Shown: positions 7,301 to 52,688 of the stretch, in pieces
Layout: each line of letters begins with the position of its first letter
Numbering within the stretch: position 1 is the stretch's first letter
Source: Steroidobacteraceae bacterium
GTDB taxonomy: Bacteria; Pseudomonadota; Gammaproteobacteria; Steroidobacterales; Steroidobacteraceae
DNA length: 64,000 nucleotides
NCBI GenBank assembly: GCA_017853175.1
Contig: JAFMKA010000002.1
Coordinates: 41,651 to 105,650 of the forward strand
Reading direction: 5' to 3'
Position numbers and translations under genes: made by a program
Notes under the pieces: generated by a model
What the model was told of the DNA's origin: nothing
Database searches by the model: none
The model's input: the letters and a program-made list of their open reading frames with translations, nothing else

Positions 7301-8084
7301 CCCTGCCGATCTGACCGGTGCAACGCTGACCTCCGGTGATGAACGTCTCGTGGGAGCTGAGCCTCCAGATCCTGAAAGTTCCTTCCGGGTGTCGAGCAAC
7401 CTGCGTCTCACTCTCGGTGATCGTGTGACGCTCGACTCTTTTGGTCTATCTGGGCGTCTGGCCGGATCACTGAACCTGGTGACAACAGCCGATGGAACGA
7501 GTCGCGGATCGGGTGAACTCGGTGTTGCAGAAGGAAAGTATGCGGCACTCGGACGACGCCTCGACATCGAGCGCGGGCGACTGATTTTCTCGGGGGGACT
7601 GCTCAATGATCCGGGCGTGGAGATTCGCGCGACAAAAGAATTCCCCGATGTTCGCGCCGGCGTCAACGTGCGTGGCTCCCTGCGTGAACCACGAATGACC
7701 TTTTTTTCAGAGCCTTCACTGCCGCAATCGCAGGTGGTCTCGCTGATTCTCGCGGGCGGTACGTTGGAGTCGGCGCAGAGCAGCAGCCAGGGTAATGCAG
7801 GCCGTGACACCCTGCTCGCTCAAGGCGGAGCCATCCTCGCCCAACAACTTGGCCAGCGTATCGGCATCGAAGACGTGGGTATCGAGCAAAATCTTGCCAA
7901 CGAGACCTCTCTGGTTTTTGGAAAGTATCTCTCTAGCCGGCTATATGTGAGCTACGGTGTATCGCTCGCGGAAGCCATCAATACCCTAAAGCTCCGCTAC
8001 AGCATCAACGATCGCTGGACCTTGCGGACCGAGGCGGGCAAAGAGTCGAGCGCCGAGGTCGTTTACACCGTCGAGAAGAACTGA
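4314..8084 (+). CDS. tamB: translocation and assembly module inner-membrane subunit TamB
   Basis: ORF 4215..8084 trimmed to ATG 4314 (MKRRNTLVAVLITLLLAVPIAG anchor), 8 nt after the tamA stop. About 1250-aa beta-rich protein with a DUF490-type C-terminus (RYSINDRWTLRTEAG). Confidence 0.85.
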   Translation: MKRRNTLVAVLITLLLAVPIAGLWTLGHSESALQRLVSLVPEKFGTLQKLSIRDVRGTLADGFQIGAVDIEHDIVSLQLRDVRARVDLIPLLWQSVEASELSVGELVIKQEERDQPPPDKPPRFLPRLLTVELRAAKIPVMEIHPMKGDPVVIRNIDFQAMVRSTTIKFGKLDASLGGMRLELTGLLSSAMPLELEGDIRMAYDPRRGPRWRAEGRFDGDLDNARLQATLLEPFDVRLEDGSMKLLAPWSVRGEASVANLDVRKFGGSAFLGLIGGNVSIIADRDGYRVTGRLLPPGLEAGPIDVSFDGFYFRNVLTARRITLAHAGANTQAEIFGTFTPTEEGLVLDLEGRWTKLRWPLADTTPALDSTRGQFTFRGYGPYAISAKADARIGALPRIEANLEATLEPGRFELTSIEARALDGSASLTGEIAWRPSERWQISGPVRGVNPGNIRSALPGNVNFSLDARGRGFGARSTIDVEVKNLSGRLRGTPARGSGALTVAGDMLQFKDIDLSAGGLRLALDGSLTPRRNDLNFRIFADDLGVLAEGGTGKLRANGTLRGAPNAMKVRLDASGENLTLNDLKIGRLSANVDLDPTGGAEASATARVEVDDIRALGRRAERLRLDIAGRSAAHTIGVEISGNDIGLSAQANGRFDVQGWTQQWSTLALRLPDNIVLGLEQSLGIQLTTDSITVSPFCLRGEKGSSLTDAATLCASGRRNDTGWAMDAAASRLPIASLLPPPNAKAQYQGSVNASVNLRSAVDGSPRGLARADFEGAALRWQRAGGRQDLIPLGSGSLIVESNDEGLFGTLDVAADQRGRARGELKALRSDDLESVAWRDLPITATLRADSSALALLYLYVPEIDRSAGELSMDLIIGGTLGTPLVNGVVRLEKGELDFYQVNLALRGIRAEARLIDNGFVLDASARAGEGTIQADAQLTWRGGEPYGELQLKGSDLVVIDVPEARITASPDLRFKVSGRDLEATGTVLIPAARITPADLTGATLTSGDERLVGAEPPDPESSFRVSSNLRLTLGDRVTLDSFGLSGRLAGSLNLVTTADGTSRGSGELGVAEGKYAALGRRLDIERGRLIFSGGLLNDPGVEIRATKEFPDVRAGVNVRGSLREPRMTFFSEPSLPQSQVVSLILAGGTLESAQSSSQGNAGRDTLLAQGGAILAQQLGQRIGIEDVGIEQNLANETSLVFGKYLSSRLYVSYGVSLAEAINTLKLRYSINDRWTLRTEAGKESSAEVVYTVEKN

Positions 8085-8144
8085 ACCGCACGTTTCAGAT
8101 CATCGGAACTTGGCTCCGCATTCGGGCGAGGTAAACTTGAACTC

Positions 8145-8828
8145 GTGATCCGGGAACGCTATCTCAAGGTGCTGGCCATCGCTTTTGCGATGCTTTGGAT
8201 AACTTTGGCCATCGCTCCTTACGATCGGGACACGTGGCTACTCGAGAACGCTCTGCTGCTGCTCGGTGTGTTCGTTCTTTGGAAAACACGTCGATCACTC
8301 CCGCTTTCGACCGCGTCCTATACCTTGCTCTTCATATTTCTTTGTTTGCACGCTGTCGGGGCGCACTTCACCTACTCGCTCGTCCCCTACGACGACGCCA
8401 TTCGGACTCTCAGTGGCTCCTCGATCACCGAGGCCCTCGGATTGAATCGCAATCACTATGACCGACTCGTTCATTTCGCATACGGGCTTCTTCTCGTTCT
8501 GCCGGTCCGAGAGCTTCTGGTGTTATTCGCGAGAGTTCGCGGATTCTGGAGTTATTTCTTGCCGCTCGATATCGTCATGTCCACATCACTTCTGTATGAA
8601 CTGATCGAATGGGGTGCGGCCGTGACGTACGGCGGTGATCTCGGTGCTGCATTCCTCGGCACCCAAGGTGACGAATGGGATGCTCACCGGGACATGGCGC
8701 TCGCAGGACTCGGTGGGCTTATTGCTGCGCTCGCCATTTTCGCCGTGAACACCTGGCGCAGAAGCGATATCAGCCTCGACTGGTTTGCCTCGCTCGGTCG
8801 CCTCGACGATCACGAGAGTCGCCGATGA
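8145..8828 (+). CDS. DUF2238/YjdF-like inner membrane protein
   Basis: Multi-pass membrane protein. The N-terminal LAIAPYDRDTWLLEN... and HAVGAHFTYSLVPYDD patterns resemble DUF2238. GTG start. Confidence 0.6.
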   Translation: MIRERYLKVLAIAFAMLWITLAIAPYDRDTWLLENALLLLGVFVLWKTRRSLPLSTASYTLLFIFLCLHAVGAHFTYSLVPYDDAIRTLSGSSITEALGLNRNHYDRLVHFAYGLLLVLPVRELLVLFARVRGFWSYFLPLDIVMSTSLLYELIEWGAAVTYGGDLGAAFLGTQGDEWDAHRDMALAGLGGLIAALAIFAVNTWRRSDISLDWFASLGRLDDHESRR

Positions 8829-9289
8829 GTCGACACCTACTCATCGTTTACGGCGGTCACCCCGGTGGACGAACGGAAAAACTGCGCATCGCCGTGACGG
8901 ATGGCATACGCGAGGCTGCGACAGACATCGACGTTCGGGAACTCCGCGCCCTCGACGCCGGTGCGGACGATCTTTTGTGGGCTAACGCTGTCATTCTTGG
9001 TACACCCGAACATTTCGGTTATATGTCGGGTACACTCAAAGATTTTTTCGATCGAACGTTTTACCCTTGTGAAAACCGCACTGCGGGGCTGCCATGGGGC
9101 CTTTTCATCAGCGCCGGTAACGACGGCACAGGAACGCGCGCCGCCGTCGAACGCATCGTGTCGGGCTACCGATGGAAGAGCGTGACCGAACCCATCATCG
9201 TAGTGGGAGAGCCTGACGCTGCAGCACTCGACCGCTGTCGAGAGCTCGGCGCAACGCTCGCCGCAGGTCTCGCCGCCGAAATTTTTTAA
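8825..9289 (+). CDS. flavodoxin-like fold protein (NAD(P)H-dependent FMN reductase-like)
   Basis: ORF trimmed to ATG 8825, which overlaps the upstream stop (ATGA). LLIVYGGHPGGRTEKL ... AVILGTPEHFGYMSGTLKDFFDR is typical of flavodoxin-like quinone reductases. Confidence 0.6.
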   Translation: MSRHLLIVYGGHPGGRTEKLRIAVTDGIREAATDIDVRELRALDAGADDLLWANAVILGTPEHFGYMSGTLKDFFDRTFYPCENRTAGLPWGLFISAGNDGTGTRAAVERIVSGYRWKSVTEPIIVVGEPDAAALDRCRELGATLAAGLAAEIF

Positions 9290-10020
9290 CGACCTAGAGC
9301 TTTCGCCGCAGCAGCAAAATCGGGCGCCAGGGCGAGCGCGCGTTCAAATTCGCGTCGGGCGCCCGCCGCGTCGCCCGCATCTCGCGCACAACGACCCGAC
9401 CAATAATGTGACTCGGCTGCGCCCCAGCTCACCCCGGCAGGGGACGGCGCTGCTGAGGAGCCGGCGGCGTCGAAGCTCGAGGCGGCCTCCTTGAAGCGCG
9501 CGCAACCTTTGCCTTTGTCGCCGCCGACGAATTTCGGCCGGAAGTAGACGCCGAATCCGTCGATCAACATGACGCGCGGATTGCGTGCATCGAGCGCGAG
9601 CGCTGCCTCGATGCTCTTACCGCTGCGAGAACCGTTACGAATAGCGCCCATGCCACCGAGGTTGGCCAAGTAGCCATAGCAGGCCGACTGCAGGGCATGC
9701 GCCTCAGCCGATTTCGGATCACGCTTCAAGGCGAGATCGAGCGCCTCGTTGCACGCGTCGCCGGCGCGCTCGGCATCACTCTCTCGCTTGGTATAAATCG
9801 ACAGCTGAAGAATGCGGAACTGCACGTAAGCGTGGGTATAGAGCTCTTTTGGGTTTTGCGACTTCGACCAGGCTGAAGTCGTCGTCGCGAGCCGTGCCAG
9901 CTCTGCGGTGTTACCCGTCAAGTAAGCCGACTGCGCTTTGGTTGCAACCGAGGTGATGTCCTGCGCCGATGCGAAGTTAGCGGCGAGCAAAGATAGCGCA
10001 ATGAGTCCGATGCGGATCAT
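9286..10020 (-). CDS. secreted helical-repeat (TPR-like) protein
   Basis: Trimmed to ATG 10020 (MIRIGLIALSLLAANFASAQD signal peptide), which overlaps the upstream SDR stop (ATGA). Ala-rich helical repeats. No specific family recognised. Confidence 0.5.
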   Translation of the reverse strand: MIRIGLIALSLLAANFASAQDITSVATKAQSAYLTGNTAELARLATTTSAWSKSQNPKELYTHAYVQFRILQLSIYTKRESDAERAGDACNEALDLALKRDPKSAEAHALQSACYGYLANLGGMGAIRNGSRSGKSIEAALALDARNPRVMLIDGFGVYFRPKFVGGDKGKGCARFKEAASSFDAAGSSAAPSPAGVSWGAAESHYWSGRCARDAGDAAGARREFERALALAPDFAAAAKALGR

Positions 10021-19432: not shown

Positions 19433-19637
19433 TCTTGGAAGCTCCGACTGATTGTTGTTTTTTTAATGCAAACCCTTCCTAAATGGGTCAAATTTCAGAC
19501 TTTTGAACCTTAACCGACTGCAAGACCCTTGTACGCCCCACTAGACCAAATTTACTGGTCGTTGTTAATCGTCTTTTTTGGGTATTTTTGTACCAAGGCG
19601 ACGTGATGACGGCCGCCGTACTTTAAGATTCAGCTCA

Positions 19638-20996
19638 ATGAAAACTCTTCAAAATCCATGGTCTCGCCGTTTTGGCACTCTTCACGCGTTACTGCTAATC
19701 GTCGCGTGGGTCGGCGCCCGCGAGGTGGCGGCTCAAAACCAAAACGCTACGGCCGTCGGGTCGGCCTGCTCCCTCGCCGTGAGGGCGGGTCGGCTGATCG
19801 ATCCCGACCGAGGTACGGTACTGCGCAATCAGATCGTCCGCATCGCGGGCGATCGCATTCTGGGTGTCTACCCTGCCGCTGAAGGAGCTCTTCGCGACTG
19901 CAGTCAGGTACTCGACCTCTCGCGTTCCACGGTGCTGCCGGGGCTGATCGACACTCATACTCATCTCACTTCGGACCCGACGATCCTTCGTTACGAGAGA
20001 CTCGGCCTCTCGATTCCCCGTCTCGCACTGATCGGTGCGGCTAACGCGCGTCGTACGCTGCTCGCCGGGTTCACGACGGTGCGTAATCTCGGAGCCGACG
20101 GTTATGCAGACGTCGCACTTCGCGATGCCATCAACGCCGGAGACGTGATCGGTCCGCGCCTCATCGTCTCAGGACCTGGCATCGGCATCACCGGCGGACA
20201 CTGCGGCAGCAATTTGCTCGCGCCCGAGTTCCGACAAACCTCGCTCGGTACCGCCGATGGTCCCGATGAAGTGCGAAAGGCCGTGCGACAAAACGTACGT
20301 TACGGTGCCGACGTCATCAAATATTGCGGTACGGGTGGCGTATTTTCCAAAGGAACCCAGCCCGGGATGCAGCAGTTCACACCCGAGGAGGTGGCCGCAC
20401 TCGTCGATGAAGCACGAATGCATGGTCGCAAAGTCGCGGTGCATGCGCACGGCGCGAACGGCATCAAGGTGGCACTGCGCGCGGGTGTCGACTCGATCGA
20501 ACACGCCAGTCTCATCGATGACGAGGGTCTCGAGCTGGCGAAGAAGTACAAGGTCTACTTCTCGATGGACATCTACAACACCGACTACACCCAGAGCGAA
20601 TCGAAACGTCGCGGAGAACTACCTGAATTTATCCGCAAAGACGCGATGATCGGCGAAATCCAGCGGCGCAACTTCGAGCGTGCGCTGAAGGCGGGCATCC
20701 GCATGACGCTCGGAACCGACGCAGGAATTTACCCACACGGCGACAACGCCAAGCAGCTAGCCGTGATGGTGCGTTATGGCATGACCCCTATGCAGGCCAT
20801 TCAAGCCGCGACGGTCAACAGCGCCGATGCCTTGGGTCTCGCAGGTCAGACAGGAACGCTCGCGACGGGCGCTTACGCCGATTTGATTGCGGTCGATGAC
20901 GATCCCCTTGCCGATATCCGCGCGCTCGAACGTGTGAGTGTCGTACTGAAAGGCGGCGAAGTGGTCAAGGGCGGAGCGACGAGCTCGATCCGATGA
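19638..20996 (+). CDS. amidohydrolase family metallo-hydrolase (secreted)
   Basis: Trimmed to ATG 19638 (signal peptide). PGLIDTHTHL metal-binding motif, later HAHG and a C-terminal ADLIAVDDDPL, as in imidazolonepropionase/Xaa-Pro dipeptidase-like amidohydrolases. Confidence 0.8.
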   Translation: MKTLQNPWSRRFGTLHALLLIVAWVGAREVAAQNQNATAVGSACSLAVRAGRLIDPDRGTVLRNQIVRIAGDRILGVYPAAEGALRDCSQVLDLSRSTVLPGLIDTHTHLTSDPTILRYERLGLSIPRLALIGAANARRTLLAGFTTVRNLGADGYADVALRDAINAGDVIGPRLIVSGPGIGITGGHCGSNLLAPEFRQTSLGTADGPDEVRKAVRQNVRYGADVIKYCGTGGVFSKGTQPGMQQFTPEEVAALVDEARMHGRKVAVHAHGANGIKVALRAGVDSIEHASLIDDEGLELAKKYKVYFSMDIYNTDYTQSESKRRGELPEFIRKDAMIGEIQRRNFERALKAGIRMTLGTDAGIYPHGDNAKQLAVMVRYGMTPMQAIQAATVNSADALGLAGQTGTLATGAYADLIAVDDDPLADIRALERVSVVLKGGEVVKGGATSSIR

Positions 20997-21862
20997 CGAC
21001 GAGTGGTCGAGGCGTCACGGCGATGTTCATCGCCGTCGCAGCGTTTTCGTTCATGGATGCGTTGCTGAAATTGTTTTCGGCTCACTATCCGCCGATGCAG
21101 GTGACGGCGATTCGTGGCGCGGCCTCGCTCCCGTTCGTGATTCTTCCGCTGTGGTACTCAGGTCGCCTGCGTGAACTCAAGCCCTCGCGCCTCGGGCTGC
21201 ACCTCGTGCGCGGCATACTCGGCATCATCATGTTGGCGACCTTCGTACTCGCGCTGCGCGAGGCTCCCCTCGCCTCGGTCTACTCCATCTATATGGCCGC
21301 TCCTTTGCTGATTGCGGCGCTCGCCGCAGGGTGGCTCGGCGAGAAAGTCGATGGAGGACGCTGGCTCGCCATCGTGATCGGACTCGTCGGTGTACTTGTG
21401 ATTCTCAGGCCTCGCCCCGATGGATTGCCGCTGATCGCAGGACTCGCCGCTGCAGCCTCCGCGCTGTGTTACGCGCTCGCCGCGATCACGGCGCGCGTCC
21501 TGACGCGCACCGAGCGCTCCTCGACGATGGTCTTCACTTTTCTAATGATCGTCACGCTCGTCGCCGGCGCGCTCGCGGCGCCAGGATGGATGACGATCCG
21601 CCCCTCCGACTGGTGGCTTATCGTGGCGGTCGGGGGTCTGGGCGCTGCGGGTCAGCACTACATCACCGAGGCTTTTCGTAATGCGCCTGCTGCCGTCGTG
21701 GCGCCCATCGAATATACGGCGCTACTTTGGGGGATCGCGATCGATTGGGTCGCTTGGGCGGTGTTACCAGGCGCCGTCATGTTGAGCGGAGCCTCGCTCG
21801 TGATCGCAGCGGGTCTTTATGTCGCGTGGCGAGAGCGAGTGGTGACACACTCTCCTTCGTGA
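20993..21862 (+). CDS. DMT (EamA) family transporter
   Basis: ATGA overlap with the upstream stop. About 10 hydrophobic helices in two EamA-like halves. Confidence 0.8.
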   Translation: MTTSGRGVTAMFIAVAAFSFMDALLKLFSAHYPPMQVTAIRGAASLPFVILPLWYSGRLRELKPSRLGLHLVRGILGIIMLATFVLALREAPLASVYSIYMAAPLLIAALAAGWLGEKVDGGRWLAIVIGLVGVLVILRPRPDGLPLIAGLAAAASALCYALAAITARVLTRTERSSTMVFTFLMIVTLVAGALAAPGWMTIRPSDWWLIVAVGGLGAAGQHYITEAFRNAPAAVVAPIEYTALLWGIAIDWVAWAVLPGAVMLSGASLVIAAGLYVAWRERVVTHSPS

Positions 21863-44067: not shown

Positions 44068-44114
44068 TTGACTCGGGTGCATTAATATGCATAATTCACG
44101 CACTTTTATGCATA
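44068..44114 (+). promoter_or_regulatory. candidate sigma-70 promoter overlapped by tandem ARG-box-like palindromes (ArgR autoregulation of the arg operon)
   Basis: TTGACT (44068-73), 16-17 nt spacer, then CATAAT/ATAATT (44090-96). TGCAT-TAAT-ATGCA lies at 44078-44091 and CGCAC-TTTT-ATGCA at 44099-44112, 21 bp apart. The perfect palindrome TATGCATA occurs twice (44086-93, 44107-14). Confidence 0.5.
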
Positions 44115-44557
44115 CCGACCTCCAACAGAACGAGCGCCGAAACGCCATCCTCCGCCTGCTGCGGGGTAGTGCCGTTCGCAAACAGGAGGAGATCGTCGAC
44201 CTGCTGAAGGAGCAGGGTTTTCCCGTGACTCAGTCGTCGGTGAGTCGAGATCTGCGTGATCTCGGCGTGCTCAAGGCTGGGGGGCGCTATCTCGCGCCCG
44301 ATGCCACGCAACGCTCGCTCGACGACTTCGGCACCCTGCGGCAGTTCGTCCGAGGGATCGCGACCGCAGGCGGCTCACTCACCGTACTAAGAACCACCGT
44401 CGGCGCGGCCCAGAGTGTCGCGATCGCCATCGACAAGGCCGAGTGGCCCGAAATCATCGGAACGATCTCGGGTGACGACACTATTTTCATCGCCACCGAC
44501 AGCGCCGCTGCGCAGACGGCCGTCGTCGCGCGTCTGCGCGAACTTTTCCGCGTCTAA
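44108..44557 (+). CDS. argR: arginine repressor
   Basis: The wHTH RRNAILRLLRGSAVRKQEEIVDLLKEQGFPVTQSSVSRDLRDLG and the C-terminal oligomerisation/arginine-binding domain (GTISGDDTIFI) match ArgR. The first in-frame ATG (44087) lies inside the putative -10, so ATG 44108 is preferred. Confidence 0.85.
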   Translation: MHTDLQQNERRNAILRLLRGSAVRKQEEIVDLLKEQGFPVTQSSVSRDLRDLGVLKAGGRYLAPDATQRSLDDFGTLRQFVRGIATAGGSLTVLRTTVGAAQSVAIAIDKAEWPEIIGTISGDDTIFIATDSAAAQTAVVARLRELFRV

Positions 44558-44566
44558 GGATTTTCC

Positions 44567-45793
44567 ATGTCTCAGCCTATCGTTCTCGCCTACTCGGGCG
44601 GCCTAGATACCTCTTTCCTGGTTCCGTGGCTCAAGGAGCAATACCAGCGTCCGATCATCACGGTCACGGTCGACACGGGAGGTATCGATGCCGAGACGGC
44701 CAAGACGCTCGAACAGCGAGCGCTCGCCCTCGGTGCCGTCGAGCACCATCAGATCGACGCCCGTGCCGATTACTTTGATCAAGTGCTGCGATTTCTCATC
44801 ATGGGTAACGTCCGACGCGGTCAGCTTTATCCGCTTTGCGTCGGCGCCGAGCGCGTCATGCAGGCCCAGACCATCGCGGTCATGGCACGAAAGCTGGGAA
44901 CCAGCAGCATCGCTCACGGCTGTACGGCAGCAGGAAATGATCAAGTTCGCTTCGAAGTCGCCCTGCGAACGCTCGCGCCCGAACTCGAGGTGATCGCGCC
45001 GGTTCGAGACAGGCACTTCAAGCGACAAGAAGAGTTGGAATTTCTACAGACTCGAAAACTACCCGTACCTCCCTTTGGAGCCGCTTACTCGATCAATCGC
45101 GGTCTCTGGGGCGTGAGCATCGGCGGTAAAGAAACGCTGACCTCGCAAGGCAGCATTCCCGATGACGCCTGGGTGCTCTCAAAAGAGGCCTTCACCAAAC
45201 CACGAGCGCCCGAGAGACATACGGTGCACTTTCAGAACGGCGTGCCCTGCGGTCTCGATGGCAAGACGATGTCGCCCGTAGAAGTGATTGAGTCGCTTGA
45301 AGCACTCGCCGGTCCTTTCGGAATCGGTCGGGGCATCCATCTCGGCGACACCATCATCGGTACCAAAGGGCGCGTGGCCTTCGAAGCGCCCGCAGCCGAA
45401 GTGCTGCTCAATGCCCATCGCGAACTGGAGAAGCTCGTACTCACCGGGCGACAACAGCGTATCAAAGAAATGCTGTCGGGCCCGTATGGCGACTGGGTTC
45501 ATGAAGGGCAACTACTCGATCCGGTATGCCGCGACATCGAGGCGCTCTTCATCTCGTCTCAGCAACGCGTAACGGGCATCGTAACCGTGCTCTTCCGTCC
45601 CGGATCCGTTTTCGTCGAGGGCGTGGACTCTCCGTACTCGCTGATGGCCGCCTCAAAGGGTGTGTATGGCGAAGCCACGGGAGAATGGACTGCCGCCGAC
45701 GCACTCGGCTTTTCGCGCATCGTCGGACTTACAGGTGTTTTCCATCGTCGAGCGGGTGAACTCGCAACAGCTCAGGGGACTTCCAAGAAATGA
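44567..45793 (+). CDS. argG: argininosuccinate synthase
   Basis: The N-terminal PP-loop VLAYSGGLDTS, then AHGCTAAGNDQVRFE. Confidence 0.95.
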   Translation: MSQPIVLAYSGGLDTSFLVPWLKEQYQRPIITVTVDTGGIDAETAKTLEQRALALGAVEHHQIDARADYFDQVLRFLIMGNVRRGQLYPLCVGAERVMQAQTIAVMARKLGTSSIAHGCTAAGNDQVRFEVALRTLAPELEVIAPVRDRHFKRQEELEFLQTRKLPVPPFGAAYSINRGLWGVSIGGKETLTSQGSIPDDAWVLSKEAFTKPRAPERHTVHFQNGVPCGLDGKTMSPVEVIESLEALAGPFGIGRGIHLGDTIIGTKGRVAFEAPAAEVLLNAHRELEKLVLTGRQQRIKEMLSGPYGDWVHEGQLLDPVCRDIEALFISSQQRVTGIVTVLFRPGSVFVEGVDSPYSLMAASKGVYGEATGEWTAADALGFSRIVGLTGVFHRRAGELATAQGTSKK

Positions 45794-46869
45794 GAACCAT
45801 CGTCGTCGACAAGATCGCCTCCGTCACGCAGGCCTGTGGTCTCGGACAAGAGGTGCGCATCGCCACGGAAAATCTACCTTCTGAAGAAGGTGTCGTGGTG
45901 GTCGTGGAAATCCTGAACACCAAGTCGAGCTACAACACGCTCGAACTGACGAGCGGCCGCATGGCGAAGGTTACGAAGGGCGACATCGTGGTGGGCGCCC
46001 TCGGACATCGCAAAGCGCTCTTCGGCTATTCGGGTCACGTACCCGAAAAACTCGCGGTCGGCGATGTGATCCAGATGCTCAACATCGGCGGCGTCTTGGG
46101 CGTTTGCGACTCAGCCAACCCTGACAAAGGCAAACCCTTCGACTGTCGCGTACTGGGTGTGGTGCTGCACTTCCCCTACCTCGGCGAGCGTATCGGCGTA
46201 CCGGCACGAGCCGGTTATCGAAAACTCGATCTCGCAGCGCCGCTCGATGCTCAAGGCGTGCCCGTCGTGGCGCTCGCCGGTACCTGCATGGAAGCGGGCA
46301 AAACCGCCGCAGCGTGCGCGATGGTGAGCCGCATGCGGCACCGTGGTCTCGTGGTCGATTGTTTCAAGGCGACCGGCGTCTCGCTCCGTCGCGACATCCT
46401 CGCCATGGAAGATGCGGGCGCGAGAAATTCGATGATCTTCACCGACCTCGGGATCATCACCACGACCCGCACCGTCGGCCCTGCGCTAACACGTACGATG
46501 ATCACCGACATTGCCGTCAAGAAACCCGATGTCATCGTCTTCGAGCTCGGCGATGGCATTCTCGGCACCTATGGCGTCGACTCAATCCTCGAATGCGCCG
46601 ATATTCGTAAAGCGCTGACGGGCGTCGTGCTGTCTGCGAACGATCCGGTCGCGGCTTGGGGCGGCGTCAAATTGCTGCGTGAGCGCTTCGGTATCGAGCC
46701 TTGCGCCGTGACGGGTCCAGCCACCGACAACGCCGTCGGTGTCGACATCATTCGCGAGCAGATGAACGTCGCCGCGTTCAATGCGCTCTCGGATGGTGCA
46801 GCGCTCGGCGACTGCGTCATCGATGCCATCGGACTCGGCGCTCGATTCCCAGTGGTGGCTGCATCGTGA
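45790..46869 (+). CDS. uncharacterised protein embedded in the arg operon (N-terminal beta-rich domain + P-loop-like domain, possibly DUF1611-like)
   Basis: ATGA overlap with argG and GTGA overlap with argC. High GC3. The central VVALAGTCMEAGKTAAACAMVSRMRHRGL looks like a Walker-A-like loop, followed by DVIVFELGDGIL (Walker-B-like). No GNAT, ArgJ or M20 deacylase motifs seen. Confidence 0.75.
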   Translation: MRTIVVDKIASVTQACGLGQEVRIATENLPSEEGVVVVVEILNTKSSYNTLELTSGRMAKVTKGDIVVGALGHRKALFGYSGHVPEKLAVGDVIQMLNIGGVLGVCDSANPDKGKPFDCRVLGVVLHFPYLGERIGVPARAGYRKLDLAAPLDAQGVPVVALAGTCMEAGKTAAACAMVSRMRHRGLVVDCFKATGVSLRRDILAMEDAGARNSMIFTDLGIITTTRTVGPALTRTMITDIAVKKPDVIVFELGDGILGTYGVDSILECADIRKALTGVVLSANDPVAAWGGVKLLRERFGIEPCAVTGPATDNAVGVDIIREQMNVAAFNALSDGAALGDCVIDAIGLGARFPVVAAS

Positions 46870-47933
46870 ACAAGATTCCGACACTGGTACTCGGCGGTAC
46901 GGGCTACGTCGCGGGCGAAGTCCTTCGCCTCGTGGCGGGTCATCCGCAACTCGAGATCGTCGGTGTCATGTCCGACTCGCAACCCGGGGAATCCGTTGCG
47001 AAAGCGTTCTCTCATCTTGCGCCAGCGCTGGGTGATCTGCGCTTTCTCTCTGAATCCGACATCACGACACTCATCACGACGCTACCGACGAGTGCTGTCT
47101 TTTCTGCAGCGCCACATGGCGTAAGTGCGGCACTCATCGACAAGCTGTTACGAGCTGCGGAAGCCGCGGGGACACACCCTCACGTGGTCGATATCTCGGC
47201 GGACTACCGCTACGCCTCAGCTGAGGCGTATGCCGCGGTCTATAAGCATCCGCACGGCGCGCCGTCACGACTCAAAGATTTCACCTGTGCCCTACCCGAA
47301 CATTTGAAAAAATCGCCTACACTGCACGTCGCCCACCCGGGCTGCTTCGCGACGGCGACCTTACTGGCGAGTGTCCCGCTGCTCTCGTTGGGTCTCATCC
47401 AGCCAACGTTATTCGTCAGCGGCGTCACGGGCAGCACGGGCTCAGGTCGAAAACCGGTCGACGGCACTCATCATCCGACCCGGCACAGTGATCTTTACGC
47501 TTACAACGCCCTCGCCCATCGTCACGCACCGGAAATCACCGCCTGTGCTGCGGCGGCGAGCGGCATCACGGCGAACTTCGCCTTCGTGCCCCACTCTGGT
47601 CCGTTCGCACGCGGTATCCATGTCACCGTACAAGCCACTCTCGCGACGGCGCATTCCGGCCTCGACACCCAAACACTCCTCGCCAAGTTGCGAAATTTTT
47701 ATGAGGGCTCGACGTTCGTTAACGTTGTCGACGCTCCGCCCCGCCTAAAAGACGTGGTCGCAAGCAACTACGCGCGCCTTCATGCCTCCACCGACGGTCG
47801 AACGATCGCCGTGATGTGCGTGATCGACAACCTCACCAAAGGCGCTGCAGGTGGCGCAGTTCAGTGGATGAACCGATTGCTCAATTTGCCTGAGCACACC
47901 GGTCTCACCGCGCCGGCTGCAGGCTGGACCTGA
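46866..47933 (+). CDS. argC: N-acyl-gamma-glutamyl-phosphate reductase
   Basis: ORF 46701..47933 trimmed to GTG 46866, which overlaps the upstream TGA. LVLGGTGYVAGE NAD motif and catalytic Cys context HPGCFATA. Confidence 0.9.
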   Translation: MNKIPTLVLGGTGYVAGEVLRLVAGHPQLEIVGVMSDSQPGESVAKAFSHLAPALGDLRFLSESDITTLITTLPTSAVFSAAPHGVSAALIDKLLRAAEAAGTHPHVVDISADYRYASAEAYAAVYKHPHGAPSRLKDFTCALPEHLKKSPTLHVAHPGCFATATLLASVPLLSLGLIQPTLFVSGVTGSTGSGRKPVDGTHHPTRHSDLYAYNALAHRHAPEITACAAAASGITANFAFVPHSGPFARGIHVTVQATLATAHSGLDTQTLLAKLRNFYEGSTFVNVVDAPPRLKDVVASNYARLHASTDGRTIAVMCVIDNLTKGAAGGAVQWMNRLLNLPEHTGLTAPAAGWT

Positions 47934-47958: not shown

Positions 47959-49095
47959 ATGAGCCCCGCCGATCATCTCGCTCCGGTTTTTGCGCAATAC
48001 CCCATTGAAGTCGTCGATGCGGAAGGCGTCTGGCTACATACGCGCGATGGCCGCCGTGTACTCGATCTGTATGGCGGTCACGCCGTCGCGGCACTCGGCT
48101 ACAAGCATCCGGGCTGGACGAGCGCGCTAACTCGACAGGCCAACGCCTGCAGCTTTCAGAGTAATGCTGTACCCATGGATGTACGAGTGCGCGCTGCCAC
48201 TCGCCTTGCACGCTTCGCAGGTGATCACTTCGACAGCATTTTTTTTGTGAACTCTGGCGCTGAAGCTAACGAGAACGCGCTACGAATGGCGTTCAAGATG
48301 ACGCGCCGCTCCAAAGTTATTGCCATCGAAGGGGCGTTTCATGGACGGACCGCTGCAGCCGGCGCAGTGACCTGGGGTGCAGACAAAAAATGGTACGAGT
48401 TCCCGCGTCCGCCCTTCGATATCGGCTGGATACCACGTCGCGACGTAAGCGCGATCGCGAGTCAGGTCGATTCCGAAACGGCGGCGGTCATCGTCGAACC
48501 GGTTCAGGGTGTCGGCGGTGCCTTCGACATGGGTCGCGAATTCCTCGCCGCCCTTCGCGCCCGCTGCAACGAGACCGGCACCGTGCTCATCTTCGACGAA
48601 GTGCAGATCGGCGTCGGCCGTAGTGGTCAGCCCTTCGCGGCTCAATTTTATGACGTCATGCCAGACATGATCACTACCGCCAAAGCGCTCGGTAACGGCT
48701 TCCCGTGCGGCGCCTTGCTCATGACGCCTCGCGTCACGGACGCGCTCAAGCTGGAAGGACTCGGCACGACCTTCGGTGGCGGACCGATGGCGTGCGCAGC
48801 CATCGAGGCGGTGATCGAAGCGATCGAGGACGAAAAACTTCTCGAAAACGTTCGTCGCGTCGCGAAGTACTTGCGCGACACCTGCACCGTGGGTCCCGTC
48901 ACAGGTCACCAGGGTGCCGGTTTCTTACACGGTCTGATTTGCTCACGGCCGGCCAAAGATATTCAAAAGACCCTGCTCGAAAGAAACATTCTCGTCGGCA
49001 CGAGTGGCGATCCGAATGTCGTCCGACTCTTGCCTCCGTACATTCTTCAAGAAAAACACGTTGACCTCCTCAGAGAGGCCTTGCTAGACCTATGA
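47959..49095 (+). CDS. argD: acyl-ornithine aminotransferase (class III PLP aminotransferase)
   Basis: GGHAVAALGY, FFVNSGAEANE, IFDEVQIGVGRSG and TTAKALGNGFP (PLP lysine), in arg operon context. Confidence 0.85.
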   Translation: MSPADHLAPVFAQYPIEVVDAEGVWLHTRDGRRVLDLYGGHAVAALGYKHPGWTSALTRQANACSFQSNAVPMDVRVRAATRLARFAGDHFDSIFFVNSGAEANENALRMAFKMTRRSKVIAIEGAFHGRTAAAGAVTWGADKKWYEFPRPPFDIGWIPRRDVSAIASQVDSETAAVIVEPVQGVGGAFDMGREFLAALRARCNETGTVLIFDEVQIGVGRSGQPFAAQFYDVMPDMITTAKALGNGFPCGALLMTPRVTDALKLEGLGTTFGGGPMACAAIEAVIEAIEDEKLLENVRRVAKYLRDTCTVGPVTGHQGAGFLHGLICSRPAKDIQKTLLERNILVGTSGDPNVVRLLPPYILQEKHVDLLREALLDL

Positions 49096-50105
49096 AACGA
49101 TTTCTCGATCTCGCCGATTTCAGTCGTGAGGAGATCCTCGATCTGCTCGCGCTCGCCCGTCGCCTCGAAGAACACCCCGAGCCGCGCGCGCTCGCTGGGA
49201 AGATTCTCGGACTCGTGTTCTTTAACCCCTCGCTGCGCACGCTTTCGTCCTTTCAGGTCGGAATGATGCGACTCGGAGGGCAATCCTTCGTGATCACACC
49301 GGGACAGGGAACTTGGCAACTAGAAACACGCACGGGAGCGATCATGAACGGTGCGGCTGCCGAGCATGTGCGCGAAGGGCTCCCCGTACTCGCATCTTAT
49401 GCCGATGCGCTCGGCATCCGAGCGTTCGCAGAGGGCAAAGATCTTCGTCATGATTTGGCCGAGACCAACTTCAAAGCGATGTCGTCGGTCGTCGACAAGC
49501 CGCTCATTAATCTCGAGTCGGCGATGAATCACCCATGTCAGGCGCTCGCCGACTGGAAGACGCTAGAAGATCTTAGAGTTCCGCAGCGTGCGAAGTTCGT
49601 GCTGACCTGGGCGAATCATCCGCGCGTCACACCGCTCGCCGTTCCCGCCGCCACCGTGCACATGGCGGCTCAGCGCGGCATGGAGGTCGTTGTACTTCGC
49701 CCCGAGGGATTCGCGCTCCCGCCAGAAATCATGGATAAAGCGCGCGCGGCTGCAGCAGCGTCCGGCGGCTCGGTCCGCGAAACCAATGATCGATCGGAAG
49801 CGCTGAACGGCGCTCACGTGGTGTACGCCAAAGAATGGGGCTCGACAACGCACTATGGCGACTCCGTCGGCGACGCCACGCTACGCGCGGGCCTCACCGA
49901 CTGGTGCGTACGCGAGAACTGGTTTTCAAAATCTGCGAGCGACTGCAAGTTCATGCATTGTCTGCCGGTGCGTCGCAACGTAGCCGTCGCGGATGAAGTA
50001 CTCGATGGCCCGCGCAGCGTAGTTCAACGCGAGGCGCACAACCGTTTACCCGCACAGATGGCGGTGCTGCACCGCATGCTTTCGAATGGAGGAGCCGAAC
50101 GATGA
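49092..50105 (+). CDS. argF': N-acyl-L-ornithine carbamoyltransferase (acetyl/succinyl-ornithine type, not classical OTC)
   Basis: FFNPSLRT replaces the OTC STRTR motif. HPCQALAD, HCLPVRRN and the overall similarity to the Xanthomonas AOTCase sequence as I remember it support the call. Confidence 0.8.
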   Translation: MKRFLDLADFSREEILDLLALARRLEEHPEPRALAGKILGLVFFNPSLRTLSSFQVGMMRLGGQSFVITPGQGTWQLETRTGAIMNGAAAEHVREGLPVLASYADALGIRAFAEGKDLRHDLAETNFKAMSSVVDKPLINLESAMNHPCQALADWKTLEDLRVPQRAKFVLTWANHPRVTPLAVPAATVHMAAQRGMEVVVLRPEGFALPPEIMDKARAAAAASGGSVRETNDRSEALNGAHVVYAKEWGSTTHYGDSVGDATLRAGLTDWCVRENWFSKSASDCKFMHCLPVRRNVAVADEVLDGPRSVVQREAHNRLPAQMAVLHRMLSNGGAER

Positions 50106-51049
50106 TCATGCACAGAGCCGACCCCGCCGCCGTCATCCGGGCGCTGCGTAGCGCGGCCCCGTATATCCGCCTATATAAGGGTAAAACTTTCGTTGTGAAA
50201 GCAGGCGGTGGTGTGTTCGGTGATCCCGATGCCACGAGAGGGCTGATCGAGCAAATCGCCATTCTTCACTCGCTCGGAATCCGTGTCGTGTTCGTGCACG
50301 GCGGCGGGCCGCAGCTCACCGAAGTGACCGAAAAGCTCGGTGTACCCACTCAAATGGTGGAAGGTCGGCGCGTCACCGACGCGCGCTCCATCGATGCCAC
50401 CGCTATGGTGCTTTCGGGGCTCATCAATACACGCATCCTCGCGACCTGTCGCGAACTCGAGATTCGAGCGATCGGTCTCAGCGGAGTTGACGCGGGTCTC
50501 ATCCAGGCTCACAAGCGTGCTCCCGTTAAACTGCAAACGGGCGATGCGACCATCGACTACGGTTTCGTGGGCGATATCGACTACATCGATACCGACGTGC
50601 TGCGTAAATTGCTCGATAACGGACTCATGCCGGTGATCTCGCCGCTTTCCAGCGACGGTTCCGGCACCTTGCTGAACATCAATGCCGATACGGTCGCCTC
50701 GGCCATCGGTGCAGCACTCGGGGCGGAGAAGCTCATTCTTTGTACCGGCGCACCGGGCATCCTCGAACGTGTCGAAGATCCCTCGTCGGTCATTTCGTAC
50801 ACCGATCTCGCAGGCGTCAAACGCCTGCGGGACGAGAAGCGCATCATCGACGGCATGCTGCCAAAAGCTAAAGCTATCGAGAATGCCATTCAGGGTGGTG
50901 TCAAACGGGTTCACGTCATCTCTTATAAATCGCCCGATGCCATCCTCGCCGAGGTATTCACCAACGAGGGAACCGGCACGCTCGTCGTCGCGGACATCGG
51001 TAAGCTCGCCCCGGCCGAGCTCGCGGCTGGCAGCGTCGCGAAGCCATGA
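50102..51049 (+). CDS. argB: acetylglutamate kinase (kinase domain only, no fused GNAT)
   Basis: Amino-acid-kinase fold: FVVKAGGG, VFVHGGGPQ, NINADTVA. 315 aa, so there is no room for a C-terminal NAGS domain. Confidence 0.9.
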   Translation: MIMHRADPAAVIRALRSAAPYIRLYKGKTFVVKAGGGVFGDPDATRGLIEQIAILHSLGIRVVFVHGGGPQLTEVTEKLGVPTQMVEGRRVTDARSIDATAMVLSGLINTRILATCRELEIRAIGLSGVDAGLIQAHKRAPVKLQTGDATIDYGFVGDIDYIDTDVLRKLLDNGLMPVISPLSSDGSGTLLNINADTVASAIGAALGAEKLILCTGAPGILERVEDPSSVISYTDLAGVKRLRDEKRIIDGMLPKAKAIENAIQGGVKRVHVISYKSPDAILAEVFTNEGTGTLVVADIGKLAPAELAAGSVAKP

Positions 51050-52251
51050 GCCGGCTATGGGACAAAGGCGCGCCGCTCGATGAGCGGGTGCTCGCCTTCA
51101 CGGCGGGAGAAGATCACGCGCTCGACGAACGACTTGTCCCCTATGACGCCCGCGCCTCGATCGCACACGCGCAAATGCTGAACGATCAAGGTCTGCTCTC
51201 GGATGCCGATTGCGAAGCCATCGAGAATGGCCTCGAAGCACTGGCCGCATCACATGCTAAAGGCGAGTGGAAGATCGAGCTCTCTGACGAGGACGGTCAG
51301 ACCGCGCTCGAGCGGCGCCTCACTGCAAAAATAGGTGAAGCCGGTGGTCGCGTTCACCTCGGACGCTCTCGTAACGATCAAGTACTGACGGCGCTGCGCC
51401 TTTACTTGCGTGATGTCACCGAGCAACTGGCGCAAGGGGCAGAAGACGTGGCCGCAGCGCTCGATCGTCTTGCTGCGCGCCAAGGCGATATCGAATTGCC
51501 GGGCTACACTCACATGCAGCAGGCGATGCCGAGTTCCGTCGGTCTCTGGGCTAACGGTTTTTCAGCAGAGCTACGTGACGACGCGTCGGGCTTGCGTGCC
51601 GTGCAACGGCGCCTCGGAAAAAATCCGCTCGGCTCGGCGGCGGGCTATGGCACGCCAGGCCTGCCCATCGATCGAGAGTCGACTCGTCAGGCGCTCGACT
51701 TCGACGAGACTCATGAGCCGGTCACGGCAGTGCAACTTTCGCGTGGCAAAGCCGAAGCACAGCTGCTTTTCGAAATCACCTTGCTGATGCAAGACCTCGG
51801 GCGCTTTGCTACCGATACCTGTCTCTTTTACACGCAGGAGTTTGCCTTCCTCGAACTACCCGATGAATTCACAACGGGCTCTTCGATCATGCCGCAAAAG
51901 CGCAATCCTGACGTATTCGAACTGCTGCGCGCTCGAACCGCATCGGCACATGGCTGCCTAGTCGAAGCACTCGGGATCTTCGCCAAATTGCCGTCGGGTT
52001 ATCAGCGCGATCTGCAGTTGCTCAAGGCACCGCTCTTTCGCGGCATCGATCTCGCTCTCGCGAGCACTTCGATCATTGCTCCGGCCATCCATGCGATGGC
52101 CTTCAAGCCAGAGAACATCATGATGGATCCGGCGATTCACGCCGCCGAACGTGCCAACGAACTCGTCGTGAAAGAAGGCATCCCCTTCAGAGAGGCTTAC
52201 CGACGAGTCGGCGCGGCGCTACGCACCGACAACGCAGGTAGCAAATCGTGA
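51046..52251 (+). CDS. argH: argininosuccinate lyase (short form, 401 aa)
   Basis: Fumarate-lyase family: GRSRNDQV, TGSSIMPQKRNPD signature. ATGA overlap with argB. Confidence 0.9.
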   Translation: MSRLWDKGAPLDERVLAFTAGEDHALDERLVPYDARASIAHAQMLNDQGLLSDADCEAIENGLEALAASHAKGEWKIELSDEDGQTALERRLTAKIGEAGGRVHLGRSRNDQVLTALRLYLRDVTEQLAQGAEDVAAALDRLAARQGDIELPGYTHMQQAMPSSVGLWANGFSAELRDDASGLRAVQRRLGKNPLGSAAGYGTPGLPIDRESTRQALDFDETHEPVTAVQLSRGKAEAQLLFEITLLMQDLGRFATDTCLFYTQEFAFLELPDEFTTGSSIMPQKRNPDVFELLRARTASAHGCLVEALGIFAKLPSGYQRDLQLLKAPLFRGIDLALASTSIIAPAIHAMAFKPENIMMDPAIHAAERANELVVKEGIPFREAYRRVGAALRTDNAGSKS

Positions 52252-52688
52252 AAGGGCAAAGAATTTCCTGGCGCCCGGAGGCGACTCTCGCGGCGATGAA
52301 TGCGAAAGCCCACGACACCATGGTCGAAATGCTTGGTATCGTGCTCACCGAGGTAGGAGACGACTATCTCAAAGGTACGATGCCAGTCACCTCGCGCAAC
52401 TGCCAACCGATGCGGATCTTGCACGGCGGCGCGTCGGTTGCGTTTGCAGAGTCTTTGGCGAGCATCGCTGCCAATTGGTCTCTCAACGACGAGCAGGCGG
52501 CGGTCGGTCAAGAAATCAACGCTAATCACCTACGTCCTGCGCGCGAGGGCGAGACCGTGACGGGTATCACGCGACTCGTTCATGCGGGTGCCCGTAGCCA
52601 AGTCTGGACGATCGATATCTACAACGAGCAGGGCCAGCCCGTTTGCATTTCTCGAATCACCATCGCCATCATCAAGCGACGCTCATGA
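52248..52688 (+). CDS. PaaI/YbdB-type hotdog-fold thioesterase
   Basis: GTG overlaps the argH TGA. MPVTSRNCQPMRILHGGASVAFAESLAS is typical of PaaI-family thioesterases. Confidence 0.75.
   Translation: MKGQRISWRPEATLAAMNAKAHDTMVEMLGIVLTEVGDDYLKGTMPVTSRNCQPMRILHGGASVAFAESLASIAANWSLNDEQAAVGQEINANHLRPAREGETVTGITRLVHAGARSQVWTIDIYNEQGQPVCISRITIAIIKRRS

Follow-up and report, generated by a model that had tools for sequence, protein, structure and literature searches.

The canonical N-acylglutamate synthases comprise ArgA with an AAK and a GNAT domain, the short GNAT-type ArgA, ArgA/B of Xanthomonas, ArgJ and the GNAT N-succinylglutamate synthase of the Bacteroidota. A P-loop enzyme that acylates glutamate is DgcN, a D-glutamate N-acetyltransferase (EC 2.3.1.312) composed of the Pfam domains PF17396 and PF07755 (PDB 7XRJ, homologue 2obn). 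Its EC class is acyl-CoA-dependent, and DgcN itself depends on acetyl-CoA. Here, a gene of a Steroidobacteraceae bacterium is described that lies within an arginine operon and, judged from its sequence and context, probably encodes the enzyme that the pathway lacks at its first step; this enzyme would make N-succinyl-L-glutamate for an arginine synthesis of the succinyl type. The gene encodes 359 amino acids (aa) and is referred to as X; its coordinates are given in the numbering of the window, i.e. the whole stretch of 64,000 nucleotides (nt) of contig JAFMKA010000002.1 that was analysed. X is proposed to have the same pathway role as the canonical synthases, but it has no GNAT, ArgJ or AAK domain and its fold is unrelated.

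A role of this kind has been predicted before. In GapMind 2026, the ArgA function was proposed for ACG33_RS14135 (A0A127FCT3) of Steroidobacter denitrificans, a bacterium that grows on minimal medium and has no known ArgA (bioRxiv 10.1101/2024.10.14.618325). The grounds were the conserved location of such genes in arg operons, the finding that their homologues never co-occur with ArgA homologues, the ArgF' residue and a weak Foldseek match of the authors' own model to DgcN 7XRJ with E=1.4e-7 and a root-mean-square deviation of 5.6 Å; ArgE was found to be missing in S. denitrificans, too (bioRxiv 10.1101/2024.10.14.618325). Literature searches returned nothing further on the family besides this work. 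Over its full length (residues 1-358), X shares 73% identity with its counterpart in a metagenome-assembled genome (MAG) of S. denitrificans (L077; a MAG copy, not the type strain). The operon there is the same as in the window and its ArgF' carries the same succinyl-type residue. X and ACG33_RS14135 belong to the same family and very probably are orthologous. X is a further member of the predicted alternative-ArgA family, from which it differs in nothing substantive, and as the idea is already published as a prediction, the window gene adds no new concept. New are an X-ArgB fusion, minimal X-argC-argB and X-argC-argD-argB-M20 clusters, an N-terminal domain without detectable PDB neighbour that makes X a non-member of DUF1611, its BioD-type motif set and paralogues in natural-product-like clusters. 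The first-pass annotation of the window had considered a non-GNAT N-acylglutamate synthase, an ArgJ-like transacylase and a deacylase. The synthase is the best supported of these, and GapMind 2026 arrived at it independently (bioRxiv 10.1101/2024.10.14.618325).

The operon containing X was annotated with Pfam and NCBIfam models as follows:

44087..44557, forward strand, argR, arginine repressor (PF01316 and PF02863)
44567..45793, forward strand, argG, argininosuccinate synthase (TIGR00032, 290 bits)
45790..46869, forward strand, X, ATG start and 359 codons (open reading frame and translation)
46866..47933, forward strand, argC, GTG start (TIGR01850, 264 bits)
47959..49095, forward strand, argD, N-acylornithine aminotransferase (PF00202, TIGR00707)
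49092..50105, forward strand, argF', N-acylornithine carbamoyltransferase (NF003384, 344 bits against a cut-off of 288)
50102..51049, forward strand, argB, N-acylglutamate kinase of 315 aa (TIGR00761; PF00696 over residues 28-274)
51046..52251, forward strand, argH, argininosuccinate lyase in a short form of 401 aa (TIGR00838, 303 bits, model positions 11-392 of 455)

The gene order is hence argR-argG-X-argC-argD-argF'-argB-argH. The position of the reading frame, its arginine neighbours and their order had been described correctly in the first-pass annotation, and its two overlaps can be read in the sequence: the ATG of X (45790-45792) overlaps the TGA stop of argG (45791-45793) in the tetranucleotide ATGA (45790-45793), and the TGA of X (46867-46869) forms GTGA with the start of argC at 46866. 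All steps of the pathway are covered by the operon except those of ArgA and the deacylase. ArgB is unfused, as had been noted; it is a kinase only and carries no synthase domain. X gave no match at E<0.01 in Pfam or NCBIfam and no GNAT, ArgJ or M20 domain appeared even at E≤10, so that the absence of these three domains, as already claimed, can be considered settled for X. Searched alone against PDB sequences, it found no match. Neither ArgA nor ArgJ nor an M20 protein was present among the larger open reading frames scanned in the 64 kb, and tblastn with two operon-encoded M20 proteins as queries gave no match in the window. A scan for promoters and terminators yielded sites that were no more numerous than in shuffled sequence.

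The linkage of X to arg genes extends to its relatives. A genome-collection scan with 11 closer sequences yielded 80 loci, one per species, all Steroidobacteraceae-like and with 72-89% identity. In all 80, argC directly followed X, and most had the full gene order of the window. X was also located directly upstream of argC in 8 of 8 more distant contexts with 36-65% identity. The distant arrangements were:

L081, 45% identity to X, argG-X-argC-argD-argF'-argB-M20-argH
L082/L083, 41% identity to X, argG-X-argC-argD-argF'-argB-M20-argH
L088, 49% identity to X, argR-argG-X-argC-argD-argF'-argB-M20-(one more gene)-argH
L084, 65% identity to X, argR-X-argC-argD-argF'-argB
L087, 49% identity to X, argR-X-argC-argD-argF'-argB
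L085, 45% identity to X, argG-X-argC
P0301 contig, 47% identity to X, argG-X-argC
L092 (contig of 5.98 Mb), 36% identity to X, X-argC-argD-argB-M20-argR-argG-argH

In L092, X-argC-argD-argB-M20 is a five-step set from glutamate to ornithine with X in the slot of ArgA. Since L081, L082/L083, L088 and L092 carry an M20 ArgE-like gene in one operon with X, X is not expected to be the deacylase and ArgA is the sole unfilled slot. Matches of the M20/ArgE tblastn search were restricted to distant loci; none turned up in the 80 close relatives up to 10 kb from the operon.

Some clusters have shrunken. In seven Steroidobacteraceae species (L006, L009, L012, L015, L016, L036 and L065), X-argC-argB stand alone at the locus, with argR also upstream in L009, and argG, argD, argF' and argH were not found within 10 kb. 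The operon is split in this sub-lineage and X stays with the early-step genes; argC and argB, which encode first steps, are the genes retained with it. In another lineage, X and ArgB are fused in frame (P0230; AA_kinase at residues 363-597). The fusion gene was found on contigs of three independent samples with single-nucleotide differences (L089, ∼7848-9881, Joint Genome Institute (JGI) 3300040949, as well as L090 and L091), where it is not part of an arg operon and points away from a gene of the arginase family (PF00491). Its frame is open upstream and takes in the N-terminus of the X domain: the called start (L, residue 44 of X) is too far downstream, and approx. 150 nt more of open frame encode the N-terminal motif of X. 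The fusion is analogous to known bifunctional synthase-kinases, e.g. ArgA/B of Xanthomonas. Together with the minimal X-argC-argB clusters it places X at the ArgA step, and from this context X is rather likely to make N-acylglutamate. No further fusion cluster was found among family members. P0181 and other over-long "fusions" have low-complexity tails rich in Arg, Ala and Ser that look like frameshift artefacts and were dropped as evidence.

The acyl group was deduced from ArgF'. In an alignment to Xanthomonas N-acetylornithine carbamoyltransferase (PDB 3kzc and 3l02), Ala90 of the window ArgF' occupies the position of E92, and its best PDB match is the E92A mutant 3l02. At 67 related loci, the equivalent residue was Ala in 66 and Ser in one. 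According to a rule that GapMind 2026 takes from Shi et al. 2007, Glu at this position indicates acetyl-ornithine, and Ala, Pro, Ser or Val succinyl-ornithine (bioRxiv 10.1101/2024.10.14.618325). Given the Ala or Ser at the E92 position, the pathway is predicted to run on N-succinyl intermediates.

The structure of X was modelled with AlphaFold2 from an alignment of 91 sequences, and residue conservation was determined in 118 sequences with identities down to ∼34%. The model was of high confidence (predicted local distance difference test (pLDDT) 94.8, predicted template modelling score 0.91) and showed two domains: an all-beta one at the N-terminus, whose strands reach to approx. residue 127, and a P-loop domain of the alpha/beta type at residues 157-346. 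A beta-rich N-terminal domain and the two motifs had been recognised in the first-pass annotation; the former was seen in the model at approx. residues 1-130 and both motifs are present. The following features were assigned within X:

45790..46257, forward strand, N-terminal all-beta domain, residues 1-156 (AlphaFold2 models)
46258..46866, forward strand, C-terminal SIMIBI-class P-loop domain, residues 157-359 (Foldseek, hhalign)
46279..46305, forward strand, Walker A or BioD-type P-loop GTCMEAGKT, residues 164-172 (sequence; hhalign to BioD)
46366..46368, forward strand, second lysine K193 in the motif K-x-T-G, equivalent to K37 of BioD (hhalign and hmmsearch alignments)
46528..46557, forward strand, Walker B strand DVIVFELGDG, residues 247-256, with E252 equivalent to E115 of BioD

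In the N-terminal domain, G34, Y48, E52, G56, R74, P85 and N98 were invariant in the 118 sequences. Invariant residues of the C-terminal domain were G170, K171, K193, G196, D202, D208, E252, G254, D255, G256, Y261, D285, G309, D313 and N331, while T172 and R57 were kept in at least 90%. Because of the invariant K171, K193, D202, E252 and D285, the largely conserved T172 and the confident model, X is predicted to be an active enzyme. The N-terminal domain was also modelled alone (pLDDT 88.8). It had no PDB neighbour in Foldseek (best E=1.1, template modelling (TM) score ≤0.22), and none of the 118 members matched an N-terminal domain family in Pfam; the modelled domain is presumed to bind the substrate. 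Foldseek matches of X in the PDB were confined to the C-terminal domain and were SIMIBI-class P-loop proteins, with a probability of 1.00 for BioD, FtsY, Ffh and HypB. Typical features of this class were found in X, namely the Walker A motif TCMEAGKT (165-172), the acidic E252 following the VIVF strand and the P-loop fold. X is a distinct two-domain family within the SIMIBI P-loop class.

BioD was the top Foldseek match (3of5, 1dts and 1dbs; E=2e-6 to 6e-6; TM on target 0.54-0.57), followed by GTPases of the signal recognition particle (SRP), HypB and FleN. A profile of 49 family members searched against PDB sequences had its best match in BioD of M. tuberculosis (3fgn, E=4e-4) and matched no DUF1611 entry. 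When the same profile was aligned to E. coli BioD with hhalign (probability 72%, E=3.5e-5), G164-TCMEAGK-T172 of X was placed on G8-TDTEVGK-T16 of BioD, K193 on K37 and E252 on E115. The alignment covers only ∼100 residues with 19% identity. BioD is a single-domain protein of ∼225 aa, whereas X carries an additional beta domain of 156 aa. As X has this extra domain and no match to PF13500 (AAA_26, the dethiobiotin synthetase family), it is outside the dethiobiotin synthetase family proper.

A resemblance to DUF1611 had also been proposed in the first-pass annotation and stood at the level of the superfamily, where it is weak; membership did not. PF07755 (DUF1611_C) was the single relevant Pfam match of X at E≤10, but with 15.2 bits (E=0.015) it fell short of the cut-off of 25, and it was limited to residues 157-196, essentially the P-loop. 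Matches to PF07755 were weak (E≤0.01) in 37 of the 118 members, and with 29 members matching MobB and 21 CbiA they are no more specific than these. The DUF1611 structure 2obn ranked 29th in Foldseek (E=1.1e-4, TM on target 0.40), behind BioD, the SRP GTPases and HypB, and DgcN 7XRJ was outside the top 50 matches of the X model. The separate model of GapMind 2026 matched 7XRJ with E=1.4e-7 (bioRxiv 10.1101/2024.10.14.618325). The N-terminal domain of DUF1611 is Rossmann-like and its Pfam model, PF17396 (DUF1611_N), was not matched by X. Since the N-terminal domain of X is all-beta without PDB neighbour and PF07755 stayed below its cut-off, X is not a member of DUF1611. DgcN and X have a P-loop (SIMIBI-like) catalytic domain with the motif GTxxxxGK in common, and the glutamate N-acylation carried out by DgcN is proposed for X, too. 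They differ in substrates and role: DgcN uses D-glutamate and an acetyl group in catabolism, while L-glutamate and a succinyl group in biosynthesis are proposed for X.

According to the proposed mechanism, X would succinylate L-glutamate at its alpha-amino group, and the N-succinyl-L-glutamate would pass to the co-transcribed ArgB, ArgC and ArgD and the succinyl-specific ArgF'. The all-beta domain would hold the dicarboxylate substrates via the invariant R74, Y48, E52 and N98 as well as the highly conserved R57, and the BioD-like P-loop domain would accommodate the nucleotide portion of the molecule that donates the acyl group. With succinyl-CoA as donor, the ADP-3'-phosphate moiety would sit in the P-loop, as may be envisaged from DgcN. 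Succinyl-CoA is favoured because DgcN, a P-loop enzyme of EC 2.3.1.312, provides a precedent by N-acetylating D-glutamate; by this analogy, its use by X has a chance slightly below even.

Several points weigh against X as the N-succinylglutamate synthase. The synthase role is a prediction for every member of the family, and the absence of argA and argJ was checked within the 64 kb and for the larger open reading frames. There was no candidate M20 deacylase in the window or at the 80 related loci; DapE, which handles N-succinyl-L,L-diaminopimelate, is suggested as candidate deacylase of the Steroidobacteraceae pathway. At L017 and L059, argB and argH are separated by insertions that were considered as a source of alternative deacylases; these were rejected, the products being FkbM methyltransferases, a RES toxin and unknown proteins. 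Moreover, the nearest characterised relatives of X are users of ATP or GTP (BioD, SRP GTPases, HypB and MobB) and not acyltransferases, and the analogy to DgcN concerns the P-loop domain alone, given the sub-threshold PF07755 match, the different N-terminal domain and the position of 7XRJ outside the top 50.

These relatives lead to a variant of the synthase role in which X is an ATP- (or GTP-) dependent succinate:L-glutamate ligase. The carboxylate of succinate would be phosphorylated and the amine of glutamate would attack the acyl phosphate without any CoA thioester, following the chemistry of BioD, CobB/CobQ, CTP synthase and PurA. Enzymes of the BioD type phosphorylate a carboxylate or a carbamate, which an amine then attacks. 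An ATP-dependent N-protection step is found in arginine and lysine pathways with the LysW/ArgX system. BioD is the best match of X both by PDB profile (E=4e-4) and by Foldseek (E=2e-6) and shares with X the P-loop GTxxExGKT and the counterparts of K193 and E252. The full set for phosphoryl transfer (K171, K193, E252 and several aspartates, with T172 at ≥90%) is kept in the 118 members, and paralogues occur among ATP-grasp ligases in plasmid gene clusters. However, the same residues could be conserved by a P-loop that binds CoA, and DgcN is a precedent for a related P-loop domain that uses acetyl-CoA on glutamate. X is also below every Pfam model of the BioD family, e.g. PF13500, and no motif for nucleotide specificity can be assigned in it. 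A ligase is considered rather unlikely, and its chance is part of the one given above for N-acylglutamate formation. An accessory nucleoside triphosphatase, for instance one that takes part in regulating or assembling ArgC/ArgB or a metallochaperone of the G3E kind, is improbable; the true synthase would then be encoded elsewhere. Many SIMIBI relatives in Foldseek and Pfam are indeed GTPases or chaperones (SRP, HypB, MobB), and ArgA was sought within the 64-kb window; but the GTP-specificity motif NKxD is absent from X, and a catalytic role is suggested by its large conserved substrate-like N-terminal domain, in which Arg, Tyr and Glu residues are invariant. GapMind 2026, furthermore, finds no ArgA in S. 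denitrificans and a strict anti-correlation with ArgA homologues (bioRxiv 10.1101/2024.10.14.618325).

The two remaining functions concern the deacylation step. As an ArgJ-like transacylase, X would transfer the succinyl group from N-succinylcitrulline (or N-succinylornithine) to glutamate and thereby cover both the synthase and the deacylase missing in Steroidobacteraceae. ArgA and ArgE are both reported missing in S. denitrificans (bioRxiv 10.1101/2024.10.14.618325), and it would fit that M20 genes are missing from the window and from the 80 relatives, searched to a distance of 10 kb from the operon. Against this, an M20 deacylase is kept in the same operon as X in other lineages, acyl transfer from an amide to an amine is without known precedent for a P-loop fold with intact Walker A and B motifs, and such a cycle would still require a priming synthase. 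This option of the first-pass annotation found no positive support and is very improbable. Even less can be expected of X as a deacylase of N-succinylcitrulline (or N-acylornithine) in place of ArgE, which would explain that no gene for this step was recognised in the window operon: distant operons hold M20 ArgE-like genes alongside X, its tightest partners are the early-step genes argC and argB, and it has the fold of a P-loop nucleoside triphosphatase without a hydrolase fold or metal-site motif. The deacylase suggested in the first-pass annotation is accordingly disfavoured, and synthesis of N-succinyl-L-glutamate is the preferred function of X.

X had been called an orphan in the first-pass annotation, which is not the case. 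A database clustered at 90% contains 6,478 homologues, all named hypothetical. An exhaustive search of representatives at 50% identity gave 1,427 clusters at E≤1e-3, of which 203 reached E≤1e-30, and among the species genomes of GTDB at least 594 encode a relative. A protein identical to X is on record as MEY2624572.1 and comes from a MAG of the Pseudomonadota. Its closest relatives belong to MAGs of Steroidobacteraceae, Acidibacter and Nevskiaceae, and more distant members to Woeseiaceae, Thermoanaerobaculia, Blastocatellia, Pyrinomonadaceae, Myxococcota, Planctomycetota and others. The JGI names of two members, "DNA-directed RNA polymerase subunit H" (P0296) and "CheY-like chemotaxis protein" (P0434), are evidently spurious automatic annotations.

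X-like two-domain paralogues were detected on plasmids of Priestia megaterium (L093, NZ_CP085446.1, 6899-7960) and Bacillus paranthracis (L096, NZ_CP116206.1, 4761-5789) with ∼31-34% identity to the family member P0444, which served as tblastn query. Both lie in natural-product-like clusters with a carbamoyltransferase, ATP-grasp ligases and split thiamine pyrophosphate enzymes. The Priestia cluster additionally holds an M20 peptidase and a gene of the phosphoenolpyruvate mutase family, and the one of Bacillus a TauD dioxygenase; the pairing of carbamoyltransferase and M20 peptidase in Priestia echoes the arg operon. A second X-like subfamily is located on Paracoccus and Sulfitobacter plasmids (L094, 6902-7954; L095, 6893-7945; L097, 5914-7011), where the paralogue is followed by a gene for an ATP-binding cassette transporter. 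On the two Paracoccus plasmids, an alpha/beta hydrolase precedes it and genes for an S8 peptidase and a sigma factor are nearby. The proteins of this subfamily are labelled "DUF1611 domain-containing protein" or "dethiobiotin synthase" by the Prokaryotic Genome Annotation Pipeline, with Pfam matches below threshold (≤21 bits). Plasmid proteins with the DUF1611 label were considered as canonical DUF1611 and proved to be X-like paralogues with sub-threshold matches at the P-loop only.

Concerning the remainder of the window, the ArgH of 401 aa is ∼55-60 C-terminal residues short, the ArgH proteins of distant operons having 454-461 aa. The spacing of ∼1.2 kb from argH to the next gene suggests that the short form is common to the Steroidobacteraceae loci. 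A hotdog-fold thioesterase (4HBT; MenI/EntH/PaaI-like) is encoded at 52248-52688 and starts 4 bp before the argH stop. Such a gene directly follows argH in ∼19 of the 80 related loci and is located elsewhere or absent in the others. That an acyl-CoA thioesterase accompanies an operon which may consume succinyl-CoA is intriguing, but could be a coincidence. Approx. 25 kb upstream of the arg operon, the gene for a protein of the Amidohydro_1 family (472 aa) precedes that for an EamA transporter (19578-21862).

If X is the synthase, hundreds of species, among them Steroidobacteraceae, Woeseiaceae, Acidobacteriota and Myxococcota, have their ArgA gap closed by its family, which also provides a non-GNAT, P-loop-based route to N-acylglutamate. 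Organisms with a gene of this family are now scored as arginine auxotrophs in automated reconstructions. The identity of the donor decides whether X would represent a second DgcN-like acyl transfer by a P-loop enzyme or would bring new ligase chemistry to a core pathway. In the latter case, it would be a third, mechanistically distinct N-protection of glutamate beside the acyl-CoA transferases (GNAT and ArgJ) and LysW/ArgX. Enzymes of the X type may also serve as N-acylating protection step in plasmid-borne natural-product clusters.

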